A DNA stretch of 14,772 bases from a virus. Taxonomy: Duplodnaviria; Heunggongvirae; Uroviricota; Caudoviricetes. The notes beneath the pieces were generated by a model that was not told the origin of the DNA, searched no databases, and worked only from the letters and a program-made list of their open reading frames with translations. Of the stretch, positions 1-14,772 are shown piece after piece. Positions within the stretch are counted from its first letter, which is position 1. Every line of letters starts with the position of its first letter. The position numbers and the translations under genes were made by a program. The DNA lies in IMG/VR virus record IMGVR_UViG_2728369183_000003; one strand, written 5' to 3'.

Positions 1-41
1 CTTTAGTTTAATATTGGAATAGCAAAATATTTGTATAAATA

Positions 42-344
42 TTAGCGGTATACACACTTATAGATAATCCAAAGCTGACGAAGGTGTTGTTTTACCTTAC
101 AGTGGCTTACTTCTCCATAAATCCGATTACTTTGGTCTTCTTCTGTGTCATCGTAAAAATGATATCTCGTTTTTTTAATGATACTTTCCATAATGTCATT
201 CATATTGTATTTATTGTTGAGAAAATAATAAAAATCATCTGGTGCATTCCTCCGCAATCCGTCCATATAGCTCCTGAAATAACATTCGGCTTGTTCAATA
301 AACTGTTTTGTCGTAATAAGCTCTATCTTCATATTTTTCTCCAT
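42..344 (-). CDS. hypothetical small protein (about 96-100 aa) in AT-rich DNA downstream of alpA; second in-frame ATG at 332 has a better GGAG Shine-Dalgarno
   Basis: ORF in the six-frame track with mixed charged/aromatic composition; same strand as and 70 nt downstream of the AlpA-like gene; no family recognised. Confidence 0.35.
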   Translation of the reverse strand: MEKNMKIELITTKQFIEQAECYFRSYMDGLRRNAPDDFYYFLNNKYNMNDIMESIIKKTRYHFYDDTEEDQSNRIYGEVSHCKVKQHLRQLWIIYKCVYR

Positions 345-413
345 TATTGCTTAGGATAATAGGATGCCATGTGAGAACAGTTATCTGTTCGACACGAGAT
401 CTTGTTTCTGTTT

Positions 414-632
414 TTATGCTGCGTTCTGGCGTGAGTTTCGAATAGCCGCTTCAATCCATTCATCAATCTCACTTTCAACAAAAGCGACACACCTCGGACC
501 TATTTTTACTCTGTCTGGAAAGTTTCCTTCCTTAATACGTTCATATAAGGTCGTGCGACTGAATCCCACTCGATTTAAAACATCAGGAACGCGGATAAAT
601 CGTTTTACGCTGGTTTCAATATTTTCTTTCAT
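414..632 (-). CDS. alpA: AlpA-family (prophage CP4-57 regulatory protein-like) helix-turn-helix transcriptional regulator, 72 aa
   Basis: Translation MKENIETSVKRFIRVPDVLNRVGFSRTTLYERIKEGNFPDRVKIGPRCVAFVESEIDEWIEAAI matches the AlpA pattern (FIRLPEV...G.SRSTLY..I..G.FP.PVK.G.R.V.W...EV..WI) from memory. ATG at 632 is preceded by GAGGACAGACA; the longer 96-aa ORF from 704 has no ribosome-binding site. Confidence 0.8.
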   Translation of the reverse strand: MKENIETSVKRFIRVPDVLNRVGFSRTTLYERIKEGNFPDRVKIGPRCVAFVESEIDEWIEAAIRNSRQNAA

Positions 633-847
633 TGTCTGTCCTCTATTATTGTAAGTAATCTCTATGAGATTTCGCTTTTCTCTATGTTGTTTCGACGTGA
701 ACAATGATAGCGATTTTGCTTATGGTAATTTAGGGACGTTCAAAGAAGTTTTTTTTGAAAAATTCGAAGGGGCACGGATGGAAAGATAACGGTTAACACT
801 GGATGAGATCACGTTCGCTCGGAGCGAACGTAACCCTTTTACTTGGC

Positions 848-1684
848 TTATTTTTTCTTATTCCTGTCGTCTTCTACATGCTTTTCAACAGGGGAGTCTT
901 TCAAGTGGTTGTTTTCCATCATGTAATCTTCAAGCGATTTCAGATAGCTCGCATCCGTCAGAAAAGCCATTGCTAACGGGTAGTCCGTTGCCTTTAGCAT
1001 TCCTTCATCACGATCGTTGTCGCTGTCCTCGTGAAGCAGCGAAGAAATCAGTGAAAGCGGGATTTTAATGCCGTTATCTTCTCCCCAGAAGATCAGGTCC
1101 ATCATCGGGATAAGACGATATTCAATGATTTTTCTGAATGTGCTTTTGCCGAAACGATACTCTCTTGGCGCTGGAGACTTCATCTTAAGCTGTCTCTTCC
1201 ATTGAGGGATCAGCACTTTCAGATGTTCAATGATTTCTTCAGTTGATGCCTCTTCCAGATGAATATCGACAGTAATGCGTGAAAGATTATTAAGGGATGT
1301 TTCTTTTAGATACTCGGACAGAAATTCGGATTCGCTTAACGCGGAAAGCTCAGGCGTGGCTTCGGTTAATGCCAGCGTTTTCGCATAAAATTGCGCGTGG
1401 CTTCGTGTCGTAGGATTTACCGCGTAGGTTCTGGCAAGCTCATGTCCAAGGGTAGCGGTATCACCACTGAAAAAGATTTCACCGCTGAGGATCTTGTTGC
1501 GGTAATCATCCAGCATTAATCGGTTAAAGGTAGGTATGGTGTTCCGGCTCAACAACATTCTGTAAGCCAAGATACGCCGCTCAACCTCAACATAAAACTG
1601 CTGTAAGGTGAGTTTCTCTATCGCCTCATAGCGTTCCACATCAAACCATGCTTCCAGTGCTTTCCTGATTTCACTTCTTTTCAT
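848..1684 (-). CDS. hypothetical protein, 278 aa from the ATG at 1684 (ORF open upstream to a TTG at 1741); no recognisable family
   Basis: Long ORF in AT-rich DNA; ATG at 1684 is preceded by GGAGGA 4 nt upstream, whereas the TTG at 1741 has no Shine-Dalgarno. Sits between the tRNA fragment and alpA. Confidence 0.5.
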   Translation of the reverse strand: MKRSEIRKALEAWFDVERYEAIEKLTLQQFYVEVERRILAYRMLLSRNTIPTFNRLMLDDYRNKILSGEIFFSGDTATLGHELARTYAVNPTTRSHAQFYAKTLALTEATPELSALSESEFLSEYLKETSLNNLSRITVDIHLEEASTEEIIEHLKVLIPQWKRQLKMKSPAPREYRFGKSTFRKIIEYRLIPMMDLIFWGEDNGIKIPLSLISSLLHEDSDNDRDEGMLKATDYPLAMAFLTDASYLKSLEDYMMENNHLKDSPVEKHVEDDRNKKK

Positions 1685-1892
1685 CCATCCTCCAACAATC
1701 CATTTCCTTTGATATATCTTCACAGGATCCGTTTGGAACAATTGAAGTTCAACTGTTTTGTCATCAGAGACGGGGGAATGGCTAAGTTGTTGTTAAGAGT
1801 GTGAACTCGAGAGCATAAAAGTGGATGCCCGACGCGCGGCAAAATGGTAAAAAACAGCATCAGTAGTAAGAAAAATTGAGCGAGAGAAAGGA

Positions 1893-1921
1893 ATTTTAAT
1901 GCAGGGATTTATGCATGACAA
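1893..1921 (-). promoter_or_regulatory. candidate sigma70 promoter upstream of the 278-aa ORF (TTGTCA, 17-nt spacer, TAAAAT on the minus strand)
   Basis: -35 TTGTCA at 1921..1916 and -10 TAAAAT at 1898..1893 read on the minus strand. The region is AT-rich, so a chance match is possible. Confidence 0.3.
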
Positions 1922-1962
1922 AATCAAAAATTATTTGTAAGTGATTGATTTTGTTGAATGAT

Positions 1963-2024
1963 TGGCGGAGAGAGGGGGATTTGAACCCCCGGTAGAGTTG
2001 CCCCTACTCCGGTTTTCGAGACCG
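1963..2024 (-). tRNA. truncated tRNA-Ser (serU-type, anticodon CGA) 3' fragment of 62 nt, from the anticodon stem to the CCA end; not a functional tRNA, interpreted as the prophage attachment-site core (attR)
   Basis: Reverse complement of 1963..2024 reads CGGTCTCGAAAACCGGAGTAGGGGCAACTCTACCGGGGGTTCAAATCCCCCTCTCTCCGCCA, matching the 3' part of E. coli tRNA-Ser(CGA) as recalled. Similarity stops at 2025; the 5' acceptor and D arms are absent. Confidence 0.85.
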
Positions 2025-2514
2025 ATGATACAGAGTCGAAAAATCAAAGAGTTAAAAATTTTTCTTGGAATAAATGTCTTAAAATCGTACACGAAAAATC
2101 AATAAATTACATAACATTAAAGAAGAATATTCCAAGCCTTCTTGAGGCCACCACCTGTTTTCAGGTGTCATTCAGATGTGATTTACCCCAGATTGGGAAA
2201 GCACGCTTTTTTTTCTCAGCTTATTCCGTTTTGCCTGTGTGTTGAATAATTCCACTGCAGTTATATAAAATCGGTAACGGCTGGAAATCATTCAATACTC
2301 GCACTATCGAAAGTTCACCAGCCAACCGCAGCACGTCCTGCATACGTCGTGTCTGCGGTTTTTCTTTTTCGCTTACATTGTGTCTGGTTCTTCCAGCCAC
2401 TCAATATCAGGTGCAGTTGATGTATCAACACGGTTCAGCAACACCCGATACTTTTTCCAGGCTTCCAGCAACGGGGTTTCTTCCTCCGCCGTTGCATATA
2501 CAGCTCACCTTTTT

Positions 2515-2835
2515 TCACCCACGATTAACCAACAGCCAGACCAGCAGACACGCCACCACCGGNNNNNNNNNNNNNNNNNNNNNNNNNNNNNNNNNNNNNN
2601 NNNNNNNNNNNNNNNNNNNNNNNACACGCGGATCAAAACCGCCCCACCACGGCATGTTAATCCGCTTGCCATGCCCGAACATTTCAATCCAGCGATATTC
2701 TGCCTGGGTGTGTTCACGCGCAATGAAGAACGTACAACCAGCTATCGCTCCGTAAGCCCAGTTTCCGGTAAAAAGACCAGCCAGTACCTGCACCGCCACG
2801 GCACAAAGCGCATGAAGTATCGACGTGATATCCAT
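2515..2835 (-). CDS. small hydrophobic (predicted membrane) protein of about 106 aa, interrupted by a 61-nt N-run (2563-2623); the C-terminal 15 codons and stop are uncertain
   Basis: ATG at 2835 preceded by AAGGA 6 nt upstream. N-terminal 70 aa (MDITSILHALCAVAVQVLAGLFTGNWAYGAIAGCTFFIAREHTQAEYRWIEMFGHGKRINMPWWGGFDPR) contains a long hydrophobic segment. Last gene before the att fragment. Confidence 0.5.
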   Translation of the reverse strand: MDITSILHALCAVAVQVLAGLFTGNWAYGAIAGCTFFIAREHTQAEYRWIEMFGHGKRINMPWWGGFDPRXXXXXXXXXXXXXXXXXXXXXPVVACLLVWLLVNRG

Positions 2836-2844
2836 CTGCTATCC

Positions 2845-3123
2845 TTAAAACCACTCCCTGAGCGGGCGCTCTGGTGTAACCACCCACTCACGGAACACGG
2901 AATCCTCAAATCCATCGTCAAGAAGACGGATATTAACAAAGTACCCTTCGTTTCGCGTGTATTCTGGTTCTCCGTCATCAGAAACATCTGTCTCCCTGAA
3001 CGTAAAACCAATCTCATCAACCAGAACGGCATTCTGCAGCTCTTCGTCCTCTTCCCAGTTAAGTTTCCTGAGAAATGCCCTGAAATCTGCTCTATCACTG
3101 AAACGCAACGTGAAATCTCTCAC
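2845..3123 (-). CDS. acidic 92-aa hypothetical protein, translationally coupled to stf (GTG start overlapping the stf stop as GTGA); possible fibre-associated or other cargo function
   Basis: GTG at 3123..3121 overlaps the stf TGA at 3122..3120; GGGGAGG lies 7 nt upstream. Protein has 24 acidic residues of 92. Its stop (2847..2845) overlaps the Shine-Dalgarno of the next gene. Confidence 0.55.
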   Translation of the reverse strand: MRDFTLRFSDRADFRAFLRKLNWEEDEELQNAVLVDEIGFTFRETDVSDDGEPEYTRNEGYFVNIRLLDDGFEDSVFREWVVTPERPLREWF

Positions 3124-5183
3124 TCCACAACCTCCCCAAGCTGCGCATCTGTTAGCTCTTTATGCCAGAGACGAAAATTCCTCACATGCCCAAATAAATG
3201 GCGTAATCCTGCTGTAGTTTGTCCACCAATGCGAATGGTTGCTGTACTCCGGATATATTCCCATTTGGTTTTAGTTTCGCTGGATATACGCCCGTTACTT
3301 ACTGCACATGTAGACTGATCTGACTTTACACGCATCCCCATAACCATTTTTTTCAACGATGCGTTTTCGTTAACACGCCTATTTGATCCACCAATATCGC
3401 AATAAGGAAATCCGTCTGGCCCATCTGCCGAAGATCCGAAGCCAAGAATAATAGCCGCTCCGGTTTGATGACCACCGGTATCAAAAACACGTGGCGCTGC
3501 ATTTGGCGTTTTATACCAGTTCTTATGTACCTCACAAAGAACCGTAAAAGGAAGATTATAAAGATTATTATTAATTGGAACTGTAACTATATCGCTTGCG
3601 CGGGTAGCCGCCGTCGTTCCTGAGATAATAAAAGATGATGCACACGAACCATCCTCAACCTGAGGGGTGGCCAGATAAATATAGTCTCCAGATACGGTTG
3701 CTCCGCCCTGATTAGGAGAATACTGTATCTGAGATCCTATTTTTAACTCATCATCAATTGCCAGGATTGTTGCCTCTGCAAAAATCCATCCGGTAGCTTC
3801 GTCCTTTCTGACTCTCGCTGTAATCCCTGAGGCCGCGCCACCTGTCATATTAATTTCAAGCGTTTGTGTATCAATATATGCATCACCAAGAAAAGTTGTT
3901 GCACTACCGTCATATTTATCAAAGCGGATACGCAACCTTACCTGTCGTTCTGTTTTAAAACGACATGAGGTTGTCACGTACTTGTTATCGCCTGAAACAT
4001 CAACTGACTTTGTAGCAGCAATTGATGCCATATTAATGGCTGACGTTTGCCCAATCAGAGAATCGTTACAAACAAACTTTCCATAAGTAAAACCAAAACT
4101 ATCAGTTCCAACCTCAGCGACATTCATATTTGCAGATTTACCCCAAGAAGCTGGAGTTGCTGAATTCAACATGTAGTTGGTTCGCTGACCTTCAATCAAT
4201 AAACCTTCTTTTTCAAATCGTGGCTCATTAATTTCCGCCGTTTTCAGTTCGCCAGATTTGTTGATATATGTTGCCGTTGATGCGCGACTGAAATTAACCT
4301 GTTTATCACTGGCAACCTGAACCACATTATCGCCAATCTTCACTTTTTTATAACCCGGAGAATAGCCCGTAATCATATCCAGCGAATCATTAAAGGGTAT
4401 CCACACATCCGGCAGCGGCTGTAAAACATATCTGTACGGCTCTGCTGTCTGGTTTGCGTATTCTCTGGCAGCATCTTCACTTGCTTTTGCTGCCGTCTGG
4501 CTTGCTGCCGATGCTTTCGCCGAGTTCGCCGCCGCTGTTTCGCTCACCTTTGCGTTGGCTTCACTGTCTTTGGCATTCGTCTCACTGGTTTTCGCTGCCG
4601 TCTGGCTGGATTTTGCGTTTTTTTCGCTGGCCTTTGTGGCTGTCTCGCTATTTTTCGCGCTGGTTTCTGATTTTTTGGCTGCTGTCGCGGAGTTTGCCGA
4701 TGCAGTCTGCGAGGCCGCTGCCGCCTGTGCGCTGTTAGCTGCATTCGTTTCTGAGGTTTTCGCCGCATTCTTCGATGAGGCTGCTGCCGTTTCGGATTTC
4801 TTTGCCGCCGCTGCACTCTGTGATGACGCTCCGGCATGACGTGCCACTTCATTCACCATCAGCTCAAAACGGCGCAGTGCCTCCGGACGAACATCATCCT
4901 CCGTCATGGCGCCGAGAAAATCATTCAGCGTACCTGGTCTGGAACCTTCATAGACGGTAATGGTCCCGGCATGTGAAGGCGGAAAATCTTCAACCAGCAG
5001 GGTGACGCTGTACTGGCCATACTCAACATCCATGCTGTAACGCCCGGCTTCATCCGGATTTTCAGAGGCCACCGTGTTCACCACCACCGTGCTGCTGGTC
5101 CGTCTGGCCTTCAGCACAATGGTGCAGTTCTGTACTGGTTTTCCTGTGCCATCTTTAAGCACGCCAGAAATTTTTACTGTCAT
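3120..5183 (-). CDS. stf: side tail fibre protein (lambda Stf-like N-terminus, Ala/Lys/Ser/Thr/Glu-rich repeat shaft, divergent C-terminal domain), 687 aa
   Basis: N-terminus MTVKISGVLKDGTGKPVQNCTIVLKAR...GRYSMDVEYGQYSVTLLVEDFPPSHAGTITVYEGSRPGTLNDFLGAMTEDD is close to lambda Stf as recalled; ATG at 5183 with GGTGG Shine-Dalgarno. Confidence 0.85.
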   Translation of the reverse strand: MTVKISGVLKDGTGKPVQNCTIVLKARRTSSTVVVNTVASENPDEAGRYSMDVEYGQYSVTLLVEDFPPSHAGTITVYEGSRPGTLNDFLGAMTEDDVRPEALRRFELMVNEVARHAGASSQSAAAAKKSETAAASSKNAAKTSETNAANSAQAAAASQTASANSATAAKKSETSAKNSETATKASEKNAKSSQTAAKTSETNAKDSEANAKVSETAAANSAKASAASQTAAKASEDAAREYANQTAEPYRYVLQPLPDVWIPFNDSLDMITGYSPGYKKVKIGDNVVQVASDKQVNFSRASTATYINKSGELKTAEINEPRFEKEGLLIEGQRTNYMLNSATPASWGKSANMNVAEVGTDSFGFTYGKFVCNDSLIGQTSAINMASIAATKSVDVSGDNKYVTTSCRFKTERQVRLRIRFDKYDGSATTFLGDAYIDTQTLEINMTGGAASGITARVRKDEATGWIFAEATILAIDDELKIGSQIQYSPNQGGATVSGDYIYLATPQVEDGSCASSFIISGTTAATRASDIVTVPINNNLYNLPFTVLCEVHKNWYKTPNAAPRVFDTGGHQTGAAIILGFGSSADGPDGFPYCDIGGSNRRVNENASLKKMVMGMRVKSDQSTCAVSNGRISSETKTKWEYIRSTATIRIGGQTTAGLRHLFGHVRNFRLWHKELTDAQLGEVVE
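4454..4850 (-). repeat. imperfect tandem repeat tract inside stf encoding the Ala/Lys/Ser/Thr/Glu-rich shaft
   Basis: Protein segment AAKKSETAAASSKNAAKTSETNAANSAQAAAASQTASANSATAAKKSETSAKNSETATKASEKNAKSSQTAAKTSETNAKDSEANAKVSETAAANSAKASAASQTAAKASEDAA; the same nucleotide periodicity produces the spurious ORFs 4454..4738, 4544..4852 and 4555..4839. Confidence 0.5.
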
Positions 5184-5194
5184 ACTTTTCCACC

Positions 5195-5230
5195 AATAAA
5201 AAAAGCCCGCAGCAGTGACGCCACGGGCTT
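5195..5230 (-). terminator. candidate rho-independent terminator downstream of lom, immediately upstream of the stf start
   Basis: Minus-strand hairpin (stem AGCCCG/CGGGCT extended by A-T pairs, 14-nt loop) followed by TTTTTTTATT (reverse complement of 5195-5203). Confidence 0.4.
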
Positions 5231-5334
5231 CAGGACAGTGTAACTTTACGTTTCCTCAAACGCAGTTCACCCCATAAGGCGGATGAACCTGCGTATCATA
5301 ACAATATTTACAGAAGATAAATCGGCGTCTGTTG

Positions 5335-5934
5335 TCAGAAACGGTATCCGATACCAACAATAAATGCATCCGTTCGCCAGTCGCCACTACCGGAACCTTC
5401 ATAAGCAATATCAATGGTCACGGATTCGGTCGGGTTAAACTGCACGCCAGCTCCCCACGCCAGAGACGTGTTGCTGTGGCGATCGTCATCACTTCCGGTC
5501 AGCACATCGTGCGTTTTCCCCTTGTTGTCAGTTACGCGGAGATAATCCCCGGAGAACGTCGACACACGGCTGTAAGCCACACCTGCCATCGCATAAGCAC
5601 TGAACCATTCATTCACGCGTACAGATGGCCCCGCCATCACGCTGAACCAGCGGTTACGCACTGAATCTTCATGCCAGCGGGTATCGCTGTAGTGCGTTTT
5701 TTGCTCATCCTCAGCATTGGCATAACTGAAGGACGTAATCAGCCCCAGCGCGTCCGTAAACTCATAACGGTATTTCACGTTAATCCCGTTCAGATTATCG
5801 CTGCCTGGCATATCAGTGTGGGTCTGAAGATACCCGGCGCTTAGTGTGGACTGATGCTCTGCTGCGCTCGCTGGCGTACCAGCGGCAACCAGCCAGACTA
5901 CTGCGGACAGAATAACAGCACATAATTTACGCAT
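5335..5934 (-). CDS. lom: Lom, Ail/Lom-family outer-membrane beta-barrel protein (lysogenic-conversion moron), 199 aa
   Basis: Signal-peptide-like N-terminus MRKLCAVILSAVVWLVAAGTPASA and C-terminus ...SVTIDIAYEGSGSGDWRTDAFIVGIGYRF, nearly identical to the lambda Lom C-terminus as recalled; GAGAGG Shine-Dalgarno before the ATG at 5934. Confidence 0.9.
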   Translation of the reverse strand: MRKLCAVILSAVVWLVAAGTPASAAEHQSTLSAGYLQTHTDMPGSDNLNGINVKYRYEFTDALGLITSFSYANAEDEQKTHYSDTRWHEDSVRNRWFSVMAGPSVRVNEWFSAYAMAGVAYSRVSTFSGDYLRVTDNKGKTHDVLTGSDDDRHSNTSLAWGAGVQFNPTESVTIDIAYEGSGSGDWRTDAFIVGIGYRF

Positions 5935-6001: not shown

Positions 6002-7336
6002 TCAGCTAATCGTGATGCCTGCAGTGGCTTTCTTCATCACAACAACCAGCAAATCGCTGATACTTGCTGTGGGATACCAGCCATTTACCCACCATGCTGA
6101 TACAGAAAACTCCAGCGTCATGTCGCCGCGACCAGCAGGCATATCAATAACACCACTGTAAACCAGCGTATTATCCATCGCGGTACGGTTATAAATTTCA
6201 GCACCGTTTTTCTTCACTATCAGGCGGCATGACGAATAAGTATCGCTGTTCTCCCGCTCATGTCTGGCACCGCTGAAAGCCACCGCCGGAATAACAATCT
6301 GCCGGTTAAACGGCTGATCGTCATAAACCCTGACGGTAATGGTTCCTGATGGCCAACGCTTCGGTGCACGGGAGTCACGAGGGAAAGCCTTACCCACTGT
6401 TTTAACGAGATCGCCTTCAATCTGGTTTGCAGACAGTTTCCCTCTGATGACACAGTTCTTGTTAATGGTGACATTATTGAGCGTGCCGGTATTCGCCGTG
6501 ATGGCTCCACTGATATCCGCATTGCGGGCTGTCAGCCTGCCATCCGGCGTCAGGGAAAACGTCGGAGGATTGCCGGATGACGTGATGCTCACCGCAAACA
6601 GTCGCTTCAGGAACACGTCGTTCATGAACAGCTGATTCCCCTGCGCCACAAACAGCGGCGTGGTGTTGCCGTTCTCCGGGGTAATCATCGCGATACGGTC
6701 CGCCTGCAGCAGAATACTGCTCAGCGTCTGACCATCAACATCCTCAATCCCCGCGCCAATCCCGGCCACATAGGGAATACCGTTTTTTGTTTTCTGCACC
6801 TTCAGCATATACATGGCATTCAGCTCATTGCGCGTGTCTGACTGAACCCGCTGGATTTGCTGTATGGTCACGGCCTGGTCACCCAGCTTTTTATCCGTGG
6901 TCGAGGTAATTTCACTCCCTTTTTTATCCACGTACTGGCGGACCTGTGCTATCTGTCGGGCGTTTTCTGACTGCCCCTGGCTGACAGTCTGTGAGATTTC
7001 ACTGCTCACCCGGTCCACTTTCTGGCTCACCTGCGCGATGGCCAGTGTCTGGTCCTCATTCTTTTTCGCAACCAGCTGCGTGAGGCTGTTTTCCGCCTTC
7101 CCGATTTTCCGGGTCACTTCTGCGATATCCGTGTCCATCCGCTGACGGATGTCTTCTTCCAGTTGCGTGACCTCCGTACGCAGCGCTGAAGCATCAATGC
7201 GCTCTTTCAGTGCCTGGCCCAGAAGCGTCTCATCTATCAGCCCCCGGAAAAATTCCAGATACCCTTCACCATCATTGCTGGGCTGCCCGCTGGCTTCCAC
7301 AAAAGCAGATTTTCCCACCAGGTTGACGCTTCGCAC
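6002..7336 (-). CDS. J: host specificity protein J (central tail fibre), C-terminal fragment; frame is open upstream to about 7400 and joins the N-terminal fragment through a single-base frameshift
   Basis: Translation ...[40 protein letters not shown]...[10 protein letters not shown]...[22 protein letters not shown]...[14 protein letters not shown] is collinear with the C-terminal third of lambda J as recalled. Confidence 0.8.
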
Positions 7337-9693
7337 GTAAAACCAGAAATCCGTCCCCGGCTTAATCCGGCTCCCCTGGACAGTCCACTGACTGCCGGTC
7401 CCAGATAACGGGCAGATTTTTCCACCTGTGCCGTGTTCGTGATGCGTTTTTCTGAGAACCAGAATTCAAACTGTACCGTCGGGTCATACACCGCAAGACG
7501 CGGGACCGCCGTTATCTGAAAATACCCCGGCGTCAGCTCAATGGTGGCGGGTTTTGCAGGCGCGTTAATCCGGAAGGTGGTGGTCGCAGGTTCGCCCTGC
7601 TGGCCGTAGCTGTTAATGGCCCGCACCGTCAGGGTGTATTCCCCCAGCGGCAGACCACTGAAACGGTGCTCCGTGTCTGCGGTGATGGCGGTGCTCACCA
7701 GACGGCTGTCTTCTCCGCTTCCGCTGGTCAGACGCAGACTGAAGCGCACACCCTTCACCACCCGCGGCGTGTCCCATTTCGCCTGTGCCAGATACTGACC
7801 GTCAGCTGCACTCACCTCCACCGTCAGGTGCTGCACTGCCGGTGGGATAACGCTGTTCAGGCTGCCTGACTGCGGCTCAAAGCTGGCCCCGTTATCCACA
7901 ATGGCTTCTTTTTCCGGTACGTGCTGCACCGCCGTGATGGCGAACGTGCCGTCCGTGTTTTCCCGGATGGAGACACAGCGGAACAGGCGACGACGCAGTG
8001 ACGGCAGGGAGAGTCCCCACACCCCGTATGTCTCCACACCATCAGGCAGGGTACTGACCTGTATCCGGTCCGGCGCGGGGTGTGCGGTGATGTCCACACT
8101 CACCGGCTTACCGCTGCCGTTAATCAGGTTCACCGCCGATGTACCTGTCTCCGGCAGGGTAACCTCACGGTCCAGCGTCAGGGTGCGGGTGGCAGCATCA
8201 ATGGACAGGACACGTCCGCCGGTCAGGGTCCCGGCATAGTCATTATCACAGATTTCAATAATGTCACCGGGTGTGTGCCGCAGCCCCTGAGACCCGAGCG
8301 TGAAATCCACCGTCTGCGTTTCCAGCAGTTCGGTCTTTATCACCCACAGTCCGGCACGGTGGGCCTGACCGCGGCTGGTACAGCCGAACGCGTCCATCTT
8401 CAGCAGGTTGCGTCCGTAGCGCAGTATGGCTTCCGGGTCTTCCACCAGTTCCGTGGAGGTCTGCCAGCCGTTCTGCGGGTCGGTGTAATTCACCTCCACC
8501 GCCGTGTGCCGGTCCTTCAGGGCACTGAAGCTGTAGCGGAATCCCACGCCGTTATCATCCACCACCACATCGCTGTTGGTGTACGGCCACACCACATCCG
8601 ACGGGCGGTCCTGAACGAACGTCAGCGTCTGACCGTTCCATACCGGCATACAGCGCATCGCAGAGCAGAAATCACTGAGAACGTCCCACGCCTTACGCTG
8701 TTGTGCCAGGTACGCATTAAAGGTCATCCGCGGCTCGGTCCCCCCGAAACCATCCGGGACCGTCTGGTCGCAGTACTGCCCGATGGCATACAGCGCCCAC
8801 TTGTCCACATCCGCCGCCCCCAGACGTTTTCCCATGCCGTAGCGCGGGTGAGTCAGCATGTCCCACAGGCACCAGGCCGGGTTGTTGCTGTATGCCGGTT
8901 TCAGACTGCCGTCCCAGATACCACTGTACGTGCGTTTTTCCGGGTCATAGTTTGACGGCACCTGGATGATGCGACCGCGGATATGGTAGTTCACCGTCAT
9001 CTGCTGGCCGCCGAACTGCTCCGCATCCACCTGCAGCCCCACAATGGCCGTGTTCGGGTAGCACTGTTTCACATCGATGATTTCGGTGTATGACGACCAC
9101 AGCGTCTTATTCTGCAGCTGGTCCGTGGTGCTGTCCGCCGTCTCCCTGACCATCCGGATGTTAAAGGGCCGGGGAGGCAGATTATCCAGAATCACCGAGG
9201 CCAGGAACTGCGAGGTGGTCTTGCCGTTAATGGTGACATCCTTTTCCGTCACCCAGCGGCCATTACGCTGTAACTGAATCAGAATCCGGACAGAGGAAGG
9301 ATTACGGTCGCCCTTTGACGTGGTCTGCACCAGTGACTGCACCCCGAAGGTAACCCGCAGGCGGTCAATGTTCGCGGACGTAATGGTGCGCGTCACCGGT
9401 TTTGCCTTCGTCACTTCCACGCCCAGTCCGGTTTCAGCACCGGAGGACTCAAAGCCTTCCGGTGGTGTCTGCTCCTGCTCCCCGGCGCGCCAGACCGCCG
9501 TCACACCGTGTATCACGGGATTACCGTCCGTGTCCGTCAGCGGGGTTTTGTTCACCAGGATACTCTGCAGTCCCTTCACCGGACCTTCTATCGGTCCCTC
9601 ACCAATCGCATCAATCACGCTCATCATCTGCGTGGATTTGAGATTATCCTTCGCCTCACGAGGCGTGTGTGCCTTACCGCCACCTTTTCCCAT
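7237..9693 (-). CDS. J: host specificity protein J (central tail fibre), N-terminal fragment of 818 aa ending in an out-of-frame tail after the frameshift near 7365-7370
   Basis: ATG at 9693 preceded by GGGGAAGG. Translation ...[29 protein letters not shown] follows lambda J; after YLGPA the frame departs from J and the continuation appears in the overlapping frame of 6002..7336. Confidence 0.8.
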
Positions 9694-9797
9694 ACAGCCT
9701 TCCCCTGAATAAATTAACCGCCACTTGCCATTCCGTACAGAAGTCGGATATCCTTCGCCCGAAAAGCATGAAACACATTTCTGCCATGCTAAAGAGA

Positions 9798-9832
9798 AAC
9801 CCCGGTATCAGCAGATACCGGGGTTTTCTTTC
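9798..9832. terminator. bidirectional hairpin terminator candidate inside the I-J intergenic insertion
   Basis: Perfect 12-bp inverted repeat AACCCCGGTATC-AGCA-GATACCGGGGTT (9798-9825), followed by TTTTCTTTC on the plus strand and by TTTCTCTTT on the minus strand. Confidence 0.5.
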
Positions 9833-9898
9833 ATGCCCACCGATAATCCTGTTGGTTAAAACCGGTAATGGCATAAAAATTCTGAATATCTTCACATT

Positions 9899-9926
9899 TT
9901 CACAAACTGACTGTGGCGCGTATAAT
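9899..9926 (+). promoter_or_regulatory. near-consensus sigma70 promoter (TTCACA, 16-nt spacer, TATAAT) firing rightward, antisense to the late tail operon
   Basis: -35 TTCACA at 9899-9904, -10 TATAAT at 9921-9926, A/T-rich upstream tract at 9871-9890. Confidence 0.45.
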
Positions 9927-9932
9927 TTCTCT

Positions 9933-10030
9933 GCGTTAATTTTTTTGTCGTGATATAAGAATAATTCCTTACACTTAATCTTCGTAACTCTCCCGCAGTT
10001 CCTGTCCGCGATCACTGCGGGATTTTTTTA
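9933..10030 (+). ncRNA. candidate small RNA of about 100 nt between tail genes I and J, defined by the promoter at 9899-9926 and the terminator at 9992-10036; no ORF inside
   Basis: Promoter and intrinsic terminator in correct order and spacing on the plus strand; the only in-frame start after the predicted transcription start (GTG ATA TAA) terminates at once. Family not recognised. Confidence 0.35.
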
Positions 10031-10036
10031 TTCTTT
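9992..10036 (+). terminator. rho-independent terminator (plus strand) abutting the 3' end of gene I
   Basis: 8-9 bp GC-rich stem CCCGCAGT / ACTGCGGG (9992-9999 and 10014-10021), 14-nt loop, then TTTTTTTATTCTTTTT (10023-10036). Confidence 0.55.
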
Positions 10037-10717
10037 TTACCCCTGCCGCCCGATAACCACGACCTTTCCGCCCCCGCCTTCATCACGGGTGCTGATGTCC
10101 TGGGATATACGGCGGGAGCCAACCAGCATTTCCCCGTAAGGCACCGGCATCGGGTTCCCCTGGGCAATCATGTTATCCAGTGAGGAAAAGTACGTGTTCT
10201 GTCTGCCGTTATCCGTTGCGCGGTAATCCGGTGTTTTTGCCTTCGGGGCCAGCATCTGGGCCACACCGCCCAGAATCATGCTGGCTCCAAGTGAAAACAG
10301 CATCGTGGTGGCAGAAAAACCACCGGCTGCCAGGGCTGAACCCCATAACGCCATTGATGCCCCGGCAGTGAAGAAAGAGCCCACGATGGCTGCCGCCCCC
10401 AGCACAATCTGCAGTCCACCCTTTCCGGCCCCGGCCAGTCGCGGCACAATGTGGATGACCGTTCCCTCACCCAGCTGTTCGTGAAGACGGGCGTACACCG
10501 CCTCCGGTGCCGTGTCATAACCGGCAATACGTATCTGGTACCAGCCTTCGTTCATCTGACGGCGAAAGCCCGGCATCTGCATCGACAGGGCGCGAATGGC
10601 TTCCGCTGCCGTGTTCACATACAGGCTGAGGCGGCGGCCAAATCGTTGTAAATCCCCGTGAAGGCAGATGCGTGCCAGTGGCGGTGACGCCAGACTGAAT
10701 GCGTTCGTCGTTGCCAT
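10037..10717 (-). CDS. I: tail assembly protein I (lambda gpI-like), 226 aa
   Basis: Translation ...ARICLHGDLQRFGRRLSLYVNTAAEAIRAL...IVLGAAAIVGSFFTAGA...LGASMILGGVAQMLAPKAKTP...QNTYFSSLDNMIAQGN...YGEMLVGSR matches lambda gpI as recalled. Confidence 0.9.
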   Translation of the reverse strand: MATTNAFSLASPPLARICLHGDLQRFGRRLSLYVNTAAEAIRALSMQMPGFRRQMNEGWYQIRIAGYDTAPEAVYARLHEQLGEGTVIHIVPRLAGAGKGGLQIVLGAAAIVGSFFTAGASMALWGSALAAGGFSATTMLFSLGASMILGGVAQMLAPKAKTPDYRATDNGRQNTYFSSLDNMIAQGNPMPVPYGEMLVGSRRISQDISTRDEGGGGKVVVIGRQG

Positions 10718-12396: not shown

Positions 12397-14772
12397 CCAC
12401 CGCTCCCTGATAACATACCGCCATCACGCAACTGCAGCCGGAGTTCATCCTGTGCCCCCTTGCGGGCCATCTCATACACCGCTTTCATCAGCTGCGGCCC
12501 TGCCCGCCCGTTGGGGCCGTCGTTCTGAATCACCACGTGATTGTTCTGATTAAAATTAATGCCTTCCGCCCGCCGCATCTGCGCCGGACTTCCGGCACCG
12601 CCGACATAACCACCTTCCGCATAGCCCCGCATCAGGCGGTACAGATTGCCGACACCAATCCGGCTGGTCGCCTCCTTCGTGAAGACAAACTCCCCGCGAT
12701 GAACAATCCCCGCAGGTTCATATTTACCCCCCGTCCCCGTAAATCCCCCGGTCGCGAAATGGAAGTTCGCCGCCGCAGCCTGAATGGCTGTACCGCCTGA
12801 CGCGGATGCGCCGCCACCAACAGCCCCGCCAATGGCGCTGCCGATACTCCCNNNNNNNNNNNNNNNNNNNNNNNNNNNNNNNNNNNNNNNNNNNNNNNNN
12901 NNTATCCCCACCATCGCCTGCTTCAGAAAAATCTCTGTCAGCATGGACAGCACAGAACGGGTGAAACCACGCCAGTTCTGTTCGCTGCCGGTCAGCATCG
13001 CTGCCATATTCTGTGCAATACCGTCAAAGGTCTGCGTGGCCGCGTTTTTAACCTGCGAAAAACTGTCCGTCGCACTTTCCGCCCACTCGCCCCAGCCGGA
13101 CTTCATCCCGGCCATCCAGCTTCCACGAAGCTGCTCCTCCGCAGACCAGGTGTTCTTCAGTGCNNNNNNNNNNNNNNNNNNNNNNNNNNNNNNNNNNNNN
13201 NNNNNNNNNNTCCGCGGGCTTTTGCGCTGATTGCCGCCTGCTTCGCGCTCTGCTGCTGTTCAAACCGCGCCGCCTGCTGTGCCAGCTCATTCAGCCGTTT
13301 CTGGTGTTCAATCTTGTCGCCCAGCTCAGCCAGCTGGCGTTTGTACTCCAGCGTTTCTTTCTCATGGGCCAGCAGGGATTTTTCCTGCTCAGATAACTGC
13401 CGTTTCGTGGCGGCCTCTTTCAGGACCACATACTGATTTTCCGCTTCCCATAAATCCCGGCGCTGCTGGCTGATTTTCTCATTCACACCGCTGTGTTTTT
13501 CCAGCGTCCTGAGCTCGGTTTCAAGCGCCAGCATGGCTGCATGCGCCCGGTCTTCCTGGCGCTCACCGGCAGACACCTTCACACCTGACGGCTTTTTCAG
13601 CGTCGATTCATAATCCTTTTTTGCCGACGCCATCAGCGTGTTGTAATCCGCCTGCAGGATTTTTCCGTCTTTCAGGGCCTTATTCAGCTCTTTCTGACGG
13701 GCGGTATATTTATCCAGCGGCGTCTGCAGGCGCTCATACGCCTTCTGCGCCTCTCCGGTATACTTCAGCTGTGACGCCTCACGCTCAGCCCGGTCCCTTG
13801 CCGCCAGTTCACCGGCTTTTTCCATATCCGACTGCAGCGTGGCCGCTGCCAGACCCAGACGGGCATTTTCCCGGTCATCCCATGCCCCCTGAAGGTTCGC
13901 ACGAAAAGAGGAGGTCTTTCCCCGGCGCTGGCTCCGGCTCTGGTACCACTGCCATTTTTTATCCGCCTCATCAAATGCCTTCTGCGCACTGGCGAGCATA
14001 TCCGCTGAGGATTCAGGACGACCGATATCCAGAATGGCATCCCACATCGATTTGAATGCCTTCCCTGTTTTATCCGCCCAGGTCTCCAGTGTTCCCATGT
14101 TTTCTTTCAGGCGACGGGTCTGCTCATCAAAGCCTTTCGTGGCGATATCGTTCGCCGCCTGCAATGCCCCGGCCTCGTCTCCGGAACGCTGCAGCTGTGC
14201 AACATACGCAATCTGCTCTGCCGTCACGTTACGGAACTGGCGCGCCATCGCCATCAGTCCCGACGTCGGGTCAGTGGTCAGCTTCCCGAAGGCTTCAGCG
14301 ACTTTATCCACCTCCACACCGGATGCAGACGCAAAACGCGCGACACTCTGGTTGATGGCATCAAACTGTTCACCACCACGCACACCGGCATTCATCAGGG
14401 CTGCCAGTGACTCTCTCGCCTGGTTAAACGTCAGCCCTGCTGCCTGCCCGGCTCTTGAGAGAGTCAGCATACGATCGGCAGTCAGTCCGGACTGATTACC
14501 GGAAAGAACCAGGGTTTTATTAAACGCTGAAAGCGTGGAATCTCCCTGGTACCAGGCGTACACCAGCGCACCTGTCGCCACCGCCAGCGAGGTGACCCCG
14601 ACCATCGGCAGGGTGATCGCACCGGCGAGCCCCCTGAACATGGGGATCATCCCGCCGAAGGAGTCCTTCACCTGACCGCCCTGTTGCAGCAGGATCAGCC
14701 AGGGATTCTGACCACCGGCAAGCTGCGTGGCGATATCCGTAAACTGTGCGGGCAGGGTTCGCATGGCCGCTT
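12393..14772 (-). CDS. H: tail tape measure protein H (lambda gpH-like), partial; 5' end lies beyond the right window edge; interrupted by N-runs at 12852-12902 and 13164-13210
   Basis: ORFs 13157..14764 (MRTLPAQFTDIATQLAGGQNPWLILLQQGGQVKDSFGGMIPMFRGLAGAITLPMVG...) and 12393..13115 (...WMAGMKSGWGEW...IVHRGEFVFTKEATSRIGVGNLYRLMRGYA...) are collinear with lambda gpH from about residue 80 to the C-terminus. Lambda H has about 80 residues N-terminal of the MRMLPAQFTD motif, so the true start is outside the window. Confidence 0.85.

Follow-up and report, generated by a model that had tools for sequence, protein, structure and literature searches.

A lambda-like Escherichia coli prophage in which the host-specificity gene J is very probably inactivated by a genuine single-base deletion

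In phage lambda, J nucleates tail assembly and binds the receptor through its C-terminus. In the stretch of DNA studied here (the window, 14,772 nt in length, whose minus strand encodes a lambda-like prophage tail module), J is spread over two overlapping minus-strand ORFs of 818 and 444 aa, sharing the 100 nt at 7237-7336. The first-pass annotation had described both ORFs as we found them, and had left the choice between a dead central tail fibre and a homopolymer error in a draft assembly. The locus therefore raises the question of whether J is truly broken, whether a base was merely lost in sequencing or assembly, or whether a J in two frames could still function. We hypothesize, with high confidence, that the window belongs to a lambda-like E. 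coli prophage in which the loss of one nucleotide, a genuine mutation passed on vertically, has inactivated J.

The genes of the window follow the series tape measure, M, L, K, I, J, lom, side tail fibre, two small ORFs and cargo genes. The order H-M-L-K-I-J-lom-stf is agreed upon by the ORFs, by PHROG matches and by annotated relatives, and the same tail gene order is annotated in prophages of E. coli VR50, CFT073 and AR_0017. In a Pfam search, the 818-aa ORF contains FNIII-A_GpJ, Phage-tail_3, Ig_J and the first half of Ig_J_second: PF24801, PF13550 and PF24421 exceed their cut-offs, and Ig_J_second (PF24489) is broken off at profile position 55 of 105. The 444-aa ORF, called mechanically on the minus strand at 6002..7336 from a GTG start at 7336, takes up the end of Ig_J_second and continues with Phage_Tail_Tip and the receptor-binding domain Ig_GpJ_C; PF09327 and PF12421 exceed their cut-offs, and these domains are present in the DNA, yet out of frame with the N-terminus. 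Gene callers begin the same ORF at 7138, which gives a protein of 378 aa. The proposal that the two ORFs are jointly collinear with lambda J is borne out by this domain order and by the alignment of an intact relative to lambda J (PDB chain 8iyk_J; see below). A lambda-type J is thus recognizable by its hub and two Ig-like domains, its C-terminal domains, its collinearity with lambda and its gene order; what the window lacks is a single uninterrupted frame. Because that frame is split by a 1-nt deletion at 7400-7402, we regard the gene as a J pseudogene and not as a functional member of the gpJ family (Table 1).

Table 1. Positions, in window coordinates, of the J fragments, the lesion, neighbouring tail genes and the putative sRNA gene
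Feature	Position	Strand	Basis or description
Lesion, GGG in place of GGGG	7400..7402	minus	MAFFT and BLAST against VR50, CFT073 and AR_0017
J 5' fragment	7237..9693	minus	818 codons and stop, ATG start
J 5' fragment, native part	residues 1-765	minus	translation
J 5' fragment, out-of-frame tail	residues 766-818, window 7398..7240	minus	53 missense residues
J remainder, native frame	6002..7399	minus	codons 766-1230 of the intact protein and stop
Tail assembly protein I, intact	10037..10618	minus	PHROG tail assembly; 193 aa, as in VR50, CFT073 and carrier L004
Lom outer-membrane protein, intact, 199 aa	5335..5934	minus	phrog_108 Lom, E = 9e-107
Side tail fibre (stf-like), intact, 687 aa	3120..5183	minus	PHROG tail fibre families; length as in VR50 and carrier L004
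Putative PasB-like sRNA gene	9899-10031, in the I-J spacer	plus, antisense to the tail operon	promoter, terminator, probe match
Near-consensus promoter, TTCACA-16-TATAAT	9899-9926	plus	sequence
Predicted terminator, hairpin (10005-10021) followed by T7	10005-10031	plus	sequence

The site of the frameshift was located by comparing the junction with intact J genes of related prophages, a check that the first-pass annotation had itself proposed. A single base is missing: CTGGGGAC of the intact J of VR50, CFT073 and AR_0017 corresponds to CTGGGAC in the window (coding strand). The deletion falls after codons Leu764 and Gly765 of J, in a run of four G that spans codons 764-766. Repair at this position yields a J of 1230 aa with 7 aa differences from that of VR50. 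Lambda J has RYLGTALYWIAASINIKPG at the lesion site, and the T and W are common to it and to the sequence repaired at 7400-7402, an alignment that supports GTGSQW as the probable native sequence. When 7000-7700 was searched by megablast against 5,426 complete E. coli genomes, many matches were returned at 99.6-99.9% identity, and among the matches listed all cover 702 nt for the 701-nt query.

The frame change had previously been placed at 7361-7371. The motif pointed to there, GCCGGATTAAG, is indeed present at 7371..7361 on the minus strand, but alignment to intact J genes puts the missing base about 30-40 nt upstream, and the deleted base belongs to the run of four G instead of to the 'GG' of GCCGGATT. 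The repair that went with this placement, a G added in GCCGGATTAAG, does open an ORF, but the T and W are lost, and the peptide reconstructed from it is wrong by 11 residues and adds 10 aa mismatches to every intact relative. It had seemed plausible because any one-base insertion inside the overlap restores an ORF.

Is the missing base real? A homopolymer sequencing or assembly error, with the real J intact, has some circumstances in its favour: the window comes from a draft with gaps, marked by three N-runs that differ in length from the true gaps, the lesion sits in a homopolymer, and no complete genome among those holding the junction matches the deletion exactly (0 of 941 records, covering 938 complete E. 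coli genomes, for an 81-nt junction; among the matches listed, every best one differs by a one-base gap). The last count, together with the GGGG read at all 81 related loci fetched (six other loci have the gap), was also weighed against an error. The key test was to look for exact copies of the truncated 818-aa protein, including its 53-residue out-of-frame tail, in other assemblies. This product was found in two isolates, GCA_964050645.1 (an isolate genome, on a contig of 4.88 Mb) and GCA_003298715.1 (an isolate draft), and in three ENA metagenome assemblies (ERZ27229392, ERZ28582145 and ERZ27288960), all five of which read CTGGGAC. A sixth carrier, contig UViG_3300029085_000024 (L009), came from an exact-pattern scan of IMG/VR, in which it was the one further contig with the deletion allele vs 78 with the intact allele. 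JGI metagenome contigs, scanned by exact pattern, gave no match to the deletion allele, a result that carries no weight given its presence in the ENA metagenomes and IMG/VR.

These carriers come from different projects. Differences from the window, over up to 10 kb, number 11 in L004, 39 in L005, 24 in L006 and 14 in L008, and L009 is far more divergent than these four; ERZ27288960 (L007), by contrast, shows 0 differences, being the same as the window over 8.6 kb, and could derive from the same strain. Since five of the six carriers differ from the window by SNPs, they represent separate samples and not copies of the window assembly. Among them are metagenomes assembled by k-mer methods (megahit-style) as well as the 4.88-Mb contig mentioned above. 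A run of four G is, moreover, short for a systematic error, and no further homopolymer indel occurs in the 7.5 kb compared with the closest intact prophage: in 7,478 nt aligned with the VR50 prophage at 98.4% identity, the J deletion is the sole indel. The lesion is accordingly neither private to one assembly nor accompanied by other homopolymer indels nearby, and we consider an error very unlikely. Of the two readings first offered, the dead tail fibre is supported by the presence of the GGG allele and of the identical 818-aa product in six other assemblies, while the private homopolymer error is effectively refuted by that recurrence in independent assemblies, without resequencing. A suspected homopolymer error can thus be resolved without reads, by finding the exact truncated protein in independent assemblies.

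As judged from the assemblies searched, the deletion allele is rare, yet not private to the window assembly. It is found on at least two downstream backgrounds, that of the window and that of L009, which has another lom/stf module: at 1-5549 of that contig, the J deletion allele is joined to a different lom allele and to a side tail fibre gene of 86% identity. Recombination could have brought the broken J into a second mosaic prophage; otherwise this metagenome contig could be a chimera. Differences between carriers are patchy, falling at 6328-6460, 6692-6725 and 12567-12765 (the 34 nt of the second patch, for instance, contain 8 changes), a pattern that would be expected of recombination between co-resident lambdoid prophages and not of point mutation. 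The carriers also bear on the gaps of the window, which has N-runs at 2563-2623 (61 nt), 12852-12902 (51 nt) and 13164-13210 (47 nt); the gap-free carrier L004 shows the true missing stretches to be 34, 3 and 93 nt, respectively. Two of these N-runs interrupt the tape-measure gene, and the frame of that gene in the window therefore cannot be judged.

A real deletion might still leave J with some function. Leaky recoding could keep a low level of functional J, making the prophage throttled or conditionally infectious, or a truncated, hub-only J could be tolerated, or even favoured by selection, if the prophage is domesticated and maintained because of cargo such as lom and the PasB-like sRNA; we assign this pair of possibilities very little probability. 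The form that recoding would take is a -1 slip of the P-site tRNA-Gly on G_GGA, yielding some full-length J. By inspection of the sequence, CUG GGA CC read as CUG GGG ACC restores exactly the native Leu-Gly-Thr, and since the 3' part of J stays open in every carrier, a low level of functional J may be possible. None of the marks of a programmed frameshift was found, however: frame 0 of the J overlap has no X_XXY_YYZ slippery heptamer, the 90 nt downstream of the lesion fold no better than shuffled sequences (z = -0.93), and J lies in one frame at every related locus examined, the complete-genome matches listed having a single gpJ and the 81 fetched loci GGGG, so that the two-frame layout is not a conserved design. 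J furthermore acts as a trimer, going by structures of the PDB 8iyk type, so that scarce full-length chains from read-through would be diluted among truncated ones. Recoding of this kind is, in our estimate, extremely unlikely.

Equally to be considered is a functional split J, in which an N-terminal hub polypeptide and a C-terminal fibre/receptor-binding polypeptide still assemble. Both parts are open, and gene callers do predict the 378-aa downstream protein, but the break lies inside one Ig-like domain (at the interrupted position of PF24489) and not at a domain boundary, and 53 missense residues are appended to the N-terminal part. The called start of the downstream protein is 260 nt past the break, such that about 87 native residues (766-852) would be lost, and no split J was seen among the 81 intact loci fetched or the complete-genome matches listed. 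We find a working split protein hardly credible. A phase-variable contingency locus is unlikely, as the tract has only four G (three in the carriers) and the shorter form had no exact match in the 941 complete-genome records.

Inherited inactivation of J is therefore the explanation that we favour. One nucleotide would have been lost from the run of four G, probably by replication slippage in this short homopolymer, and translation of the gene as it stands yields 765 native residues, then 53 missense residues up to the stop codon, with the break in the middle of the second Ig/FNIII-like domain. This truncated J lacks both the shaft of the central fibre and the receptor-binding domain at the C-terminus. 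By lambda genetics and structure, the prophage would be unable to make infectious particles on its own; infectivity would need recombination with, or complementation by, the intact J of another lambdoid prophage. When the repaired window J was compared with the 81 intact loci, there was no site where the window base is rare (<5%) and no second lesion, and in L004 the head and tail genes, D/E onwards and including H, M, L, K, I, lom and stf, are all of normal length. As the sole lesion in the tail module, the deletion points to an inactivation that is evolutionarily recent and single-hit, and the allele is probably carried now by a small E. coli lineage.

Lambdoid prophages commonly have structural genes that were inactivated by frameshifts. 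A J pseudogene formed in this manner is ordinary prophage decay and nothing new in kind, and the allele is already in public assemblies. The finding has little importance beyond annotation: what is useful in it is the corrected position, the corrected native peptide and the recognition of the lesion as biological. The appropriate annotation is a single J pseudogene, frameshifted at 7400-7402, neither split into two genes nor 'corrected' as a sequencing error, and predictions of inducible phages in this lineage should count the prophage as defective in host recognition.

Immediately upstream of J lies a spacer of 343 nt (9694-10036) that separates it from I. A search of this spacer against protein families gave no match, and its 113-aa ORF, which is without a PHROG match, is probably not a gene. 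There was no Rfam match at gathering thresholds in the whole window, and a permissive Rfam scan of the spacer gave sub-threshold chance matches only. The published Northern probe for PasB of EPEC (PMC8550237, supplement) matches the terminator region in the window at 20 of 23 positions, and PasB of prophage PP6 in strain E2348/69 occupies the same I-J spacer. In an alignment with the latter, the promoter, 5' end and terminator are conserved and the middle has diverged; this middle is presumably the seed region. PasB is an Hfq-dependent sRNA of EPEC (PMC8550237); a 2026 preprint (10.64898/2026.05.13.724894) describes it as lying within structural operons of phages and as common outside EPEC. 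From these likenesses in sequence, the I-J spacer appears to encode a homologue of PasB. About 110 nt of the spacer (~9720-9830) are missing from its E2348/69 counterpart. This extra stretch includes a perfect 10-bp GC-rich hairpin, CCCCGGTATC-4 nt-GATACCGGGG, at ~9797-9824, with T/A runs flanking it on both strands; its appearance is that of a terminator acting in both directions, placed within the late operon between I and J.

At the other end of the module, downstream of the tail fibre genes, a cargo block occupies 1-2369 of the window. It contains a gene for a DUF6387 protein (848-1741, phrog_23422), an AlpA-like HTH gene and small hypothetical ORFs. The block is 99.2% identical to its counterpart in E. 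coli AR_0017, where H-NS-family genes come next, and may represent an islet of its own that adjoins the end of the prophage.

Comparison with known systems places this J beside that of lambda (gpJ, the tip attachment protein J or central tail fibre; PDB 8iyk, 8iyl and 8k35). It stands in the same place, after K and I and before lom and stf, and shares the domain order. An intact 1230-aa relative, 7 aa from the repaired window J, aligns to lambda 8iyk_J over residues 1-836 and 939-1229 (E = 0); lambda J has 1132 aa, and the roughly 100 extra residues of the intact form lie between the Ig domains and the tail-tip fibre domain. The difference from lambda gpJ is the interruption by a 1-nt deletion at codon 765/766. 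Compared with the intact gpJ of CFT073, VR50 and AR_0017 (WP_000514735.1, WP_046072853.1 and WP_100272962.1), the window J is 98-99% identical at the nucleotide level. The flanking tail genes of this prophage group are as in the window, and its members have GGGG and one 1230-aa protein where the window has GGG.

The tail assembly chaperones G and GT of lambda rely on a conserved slippery heptamer, G_GGA_AAG, and their two-frame layout is conserved among homologues. The J of the window resembles them in having two overlapping frames in a lambda-like tail operon, but its overlap has neither such a heptamer nor such conservation. Rac, Qin and DLP12 of E. coli K-12 are cryptic or defective lambdoid prophages with lost or broken structural genes. 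As in these, a structural-gene lesion in the window would block the lytic cycle of a lambdoid prophage; unlike these, which bear large deletions, the window has one point lesion in an otherwise intact tail module, and would represent a very early stage of decay.
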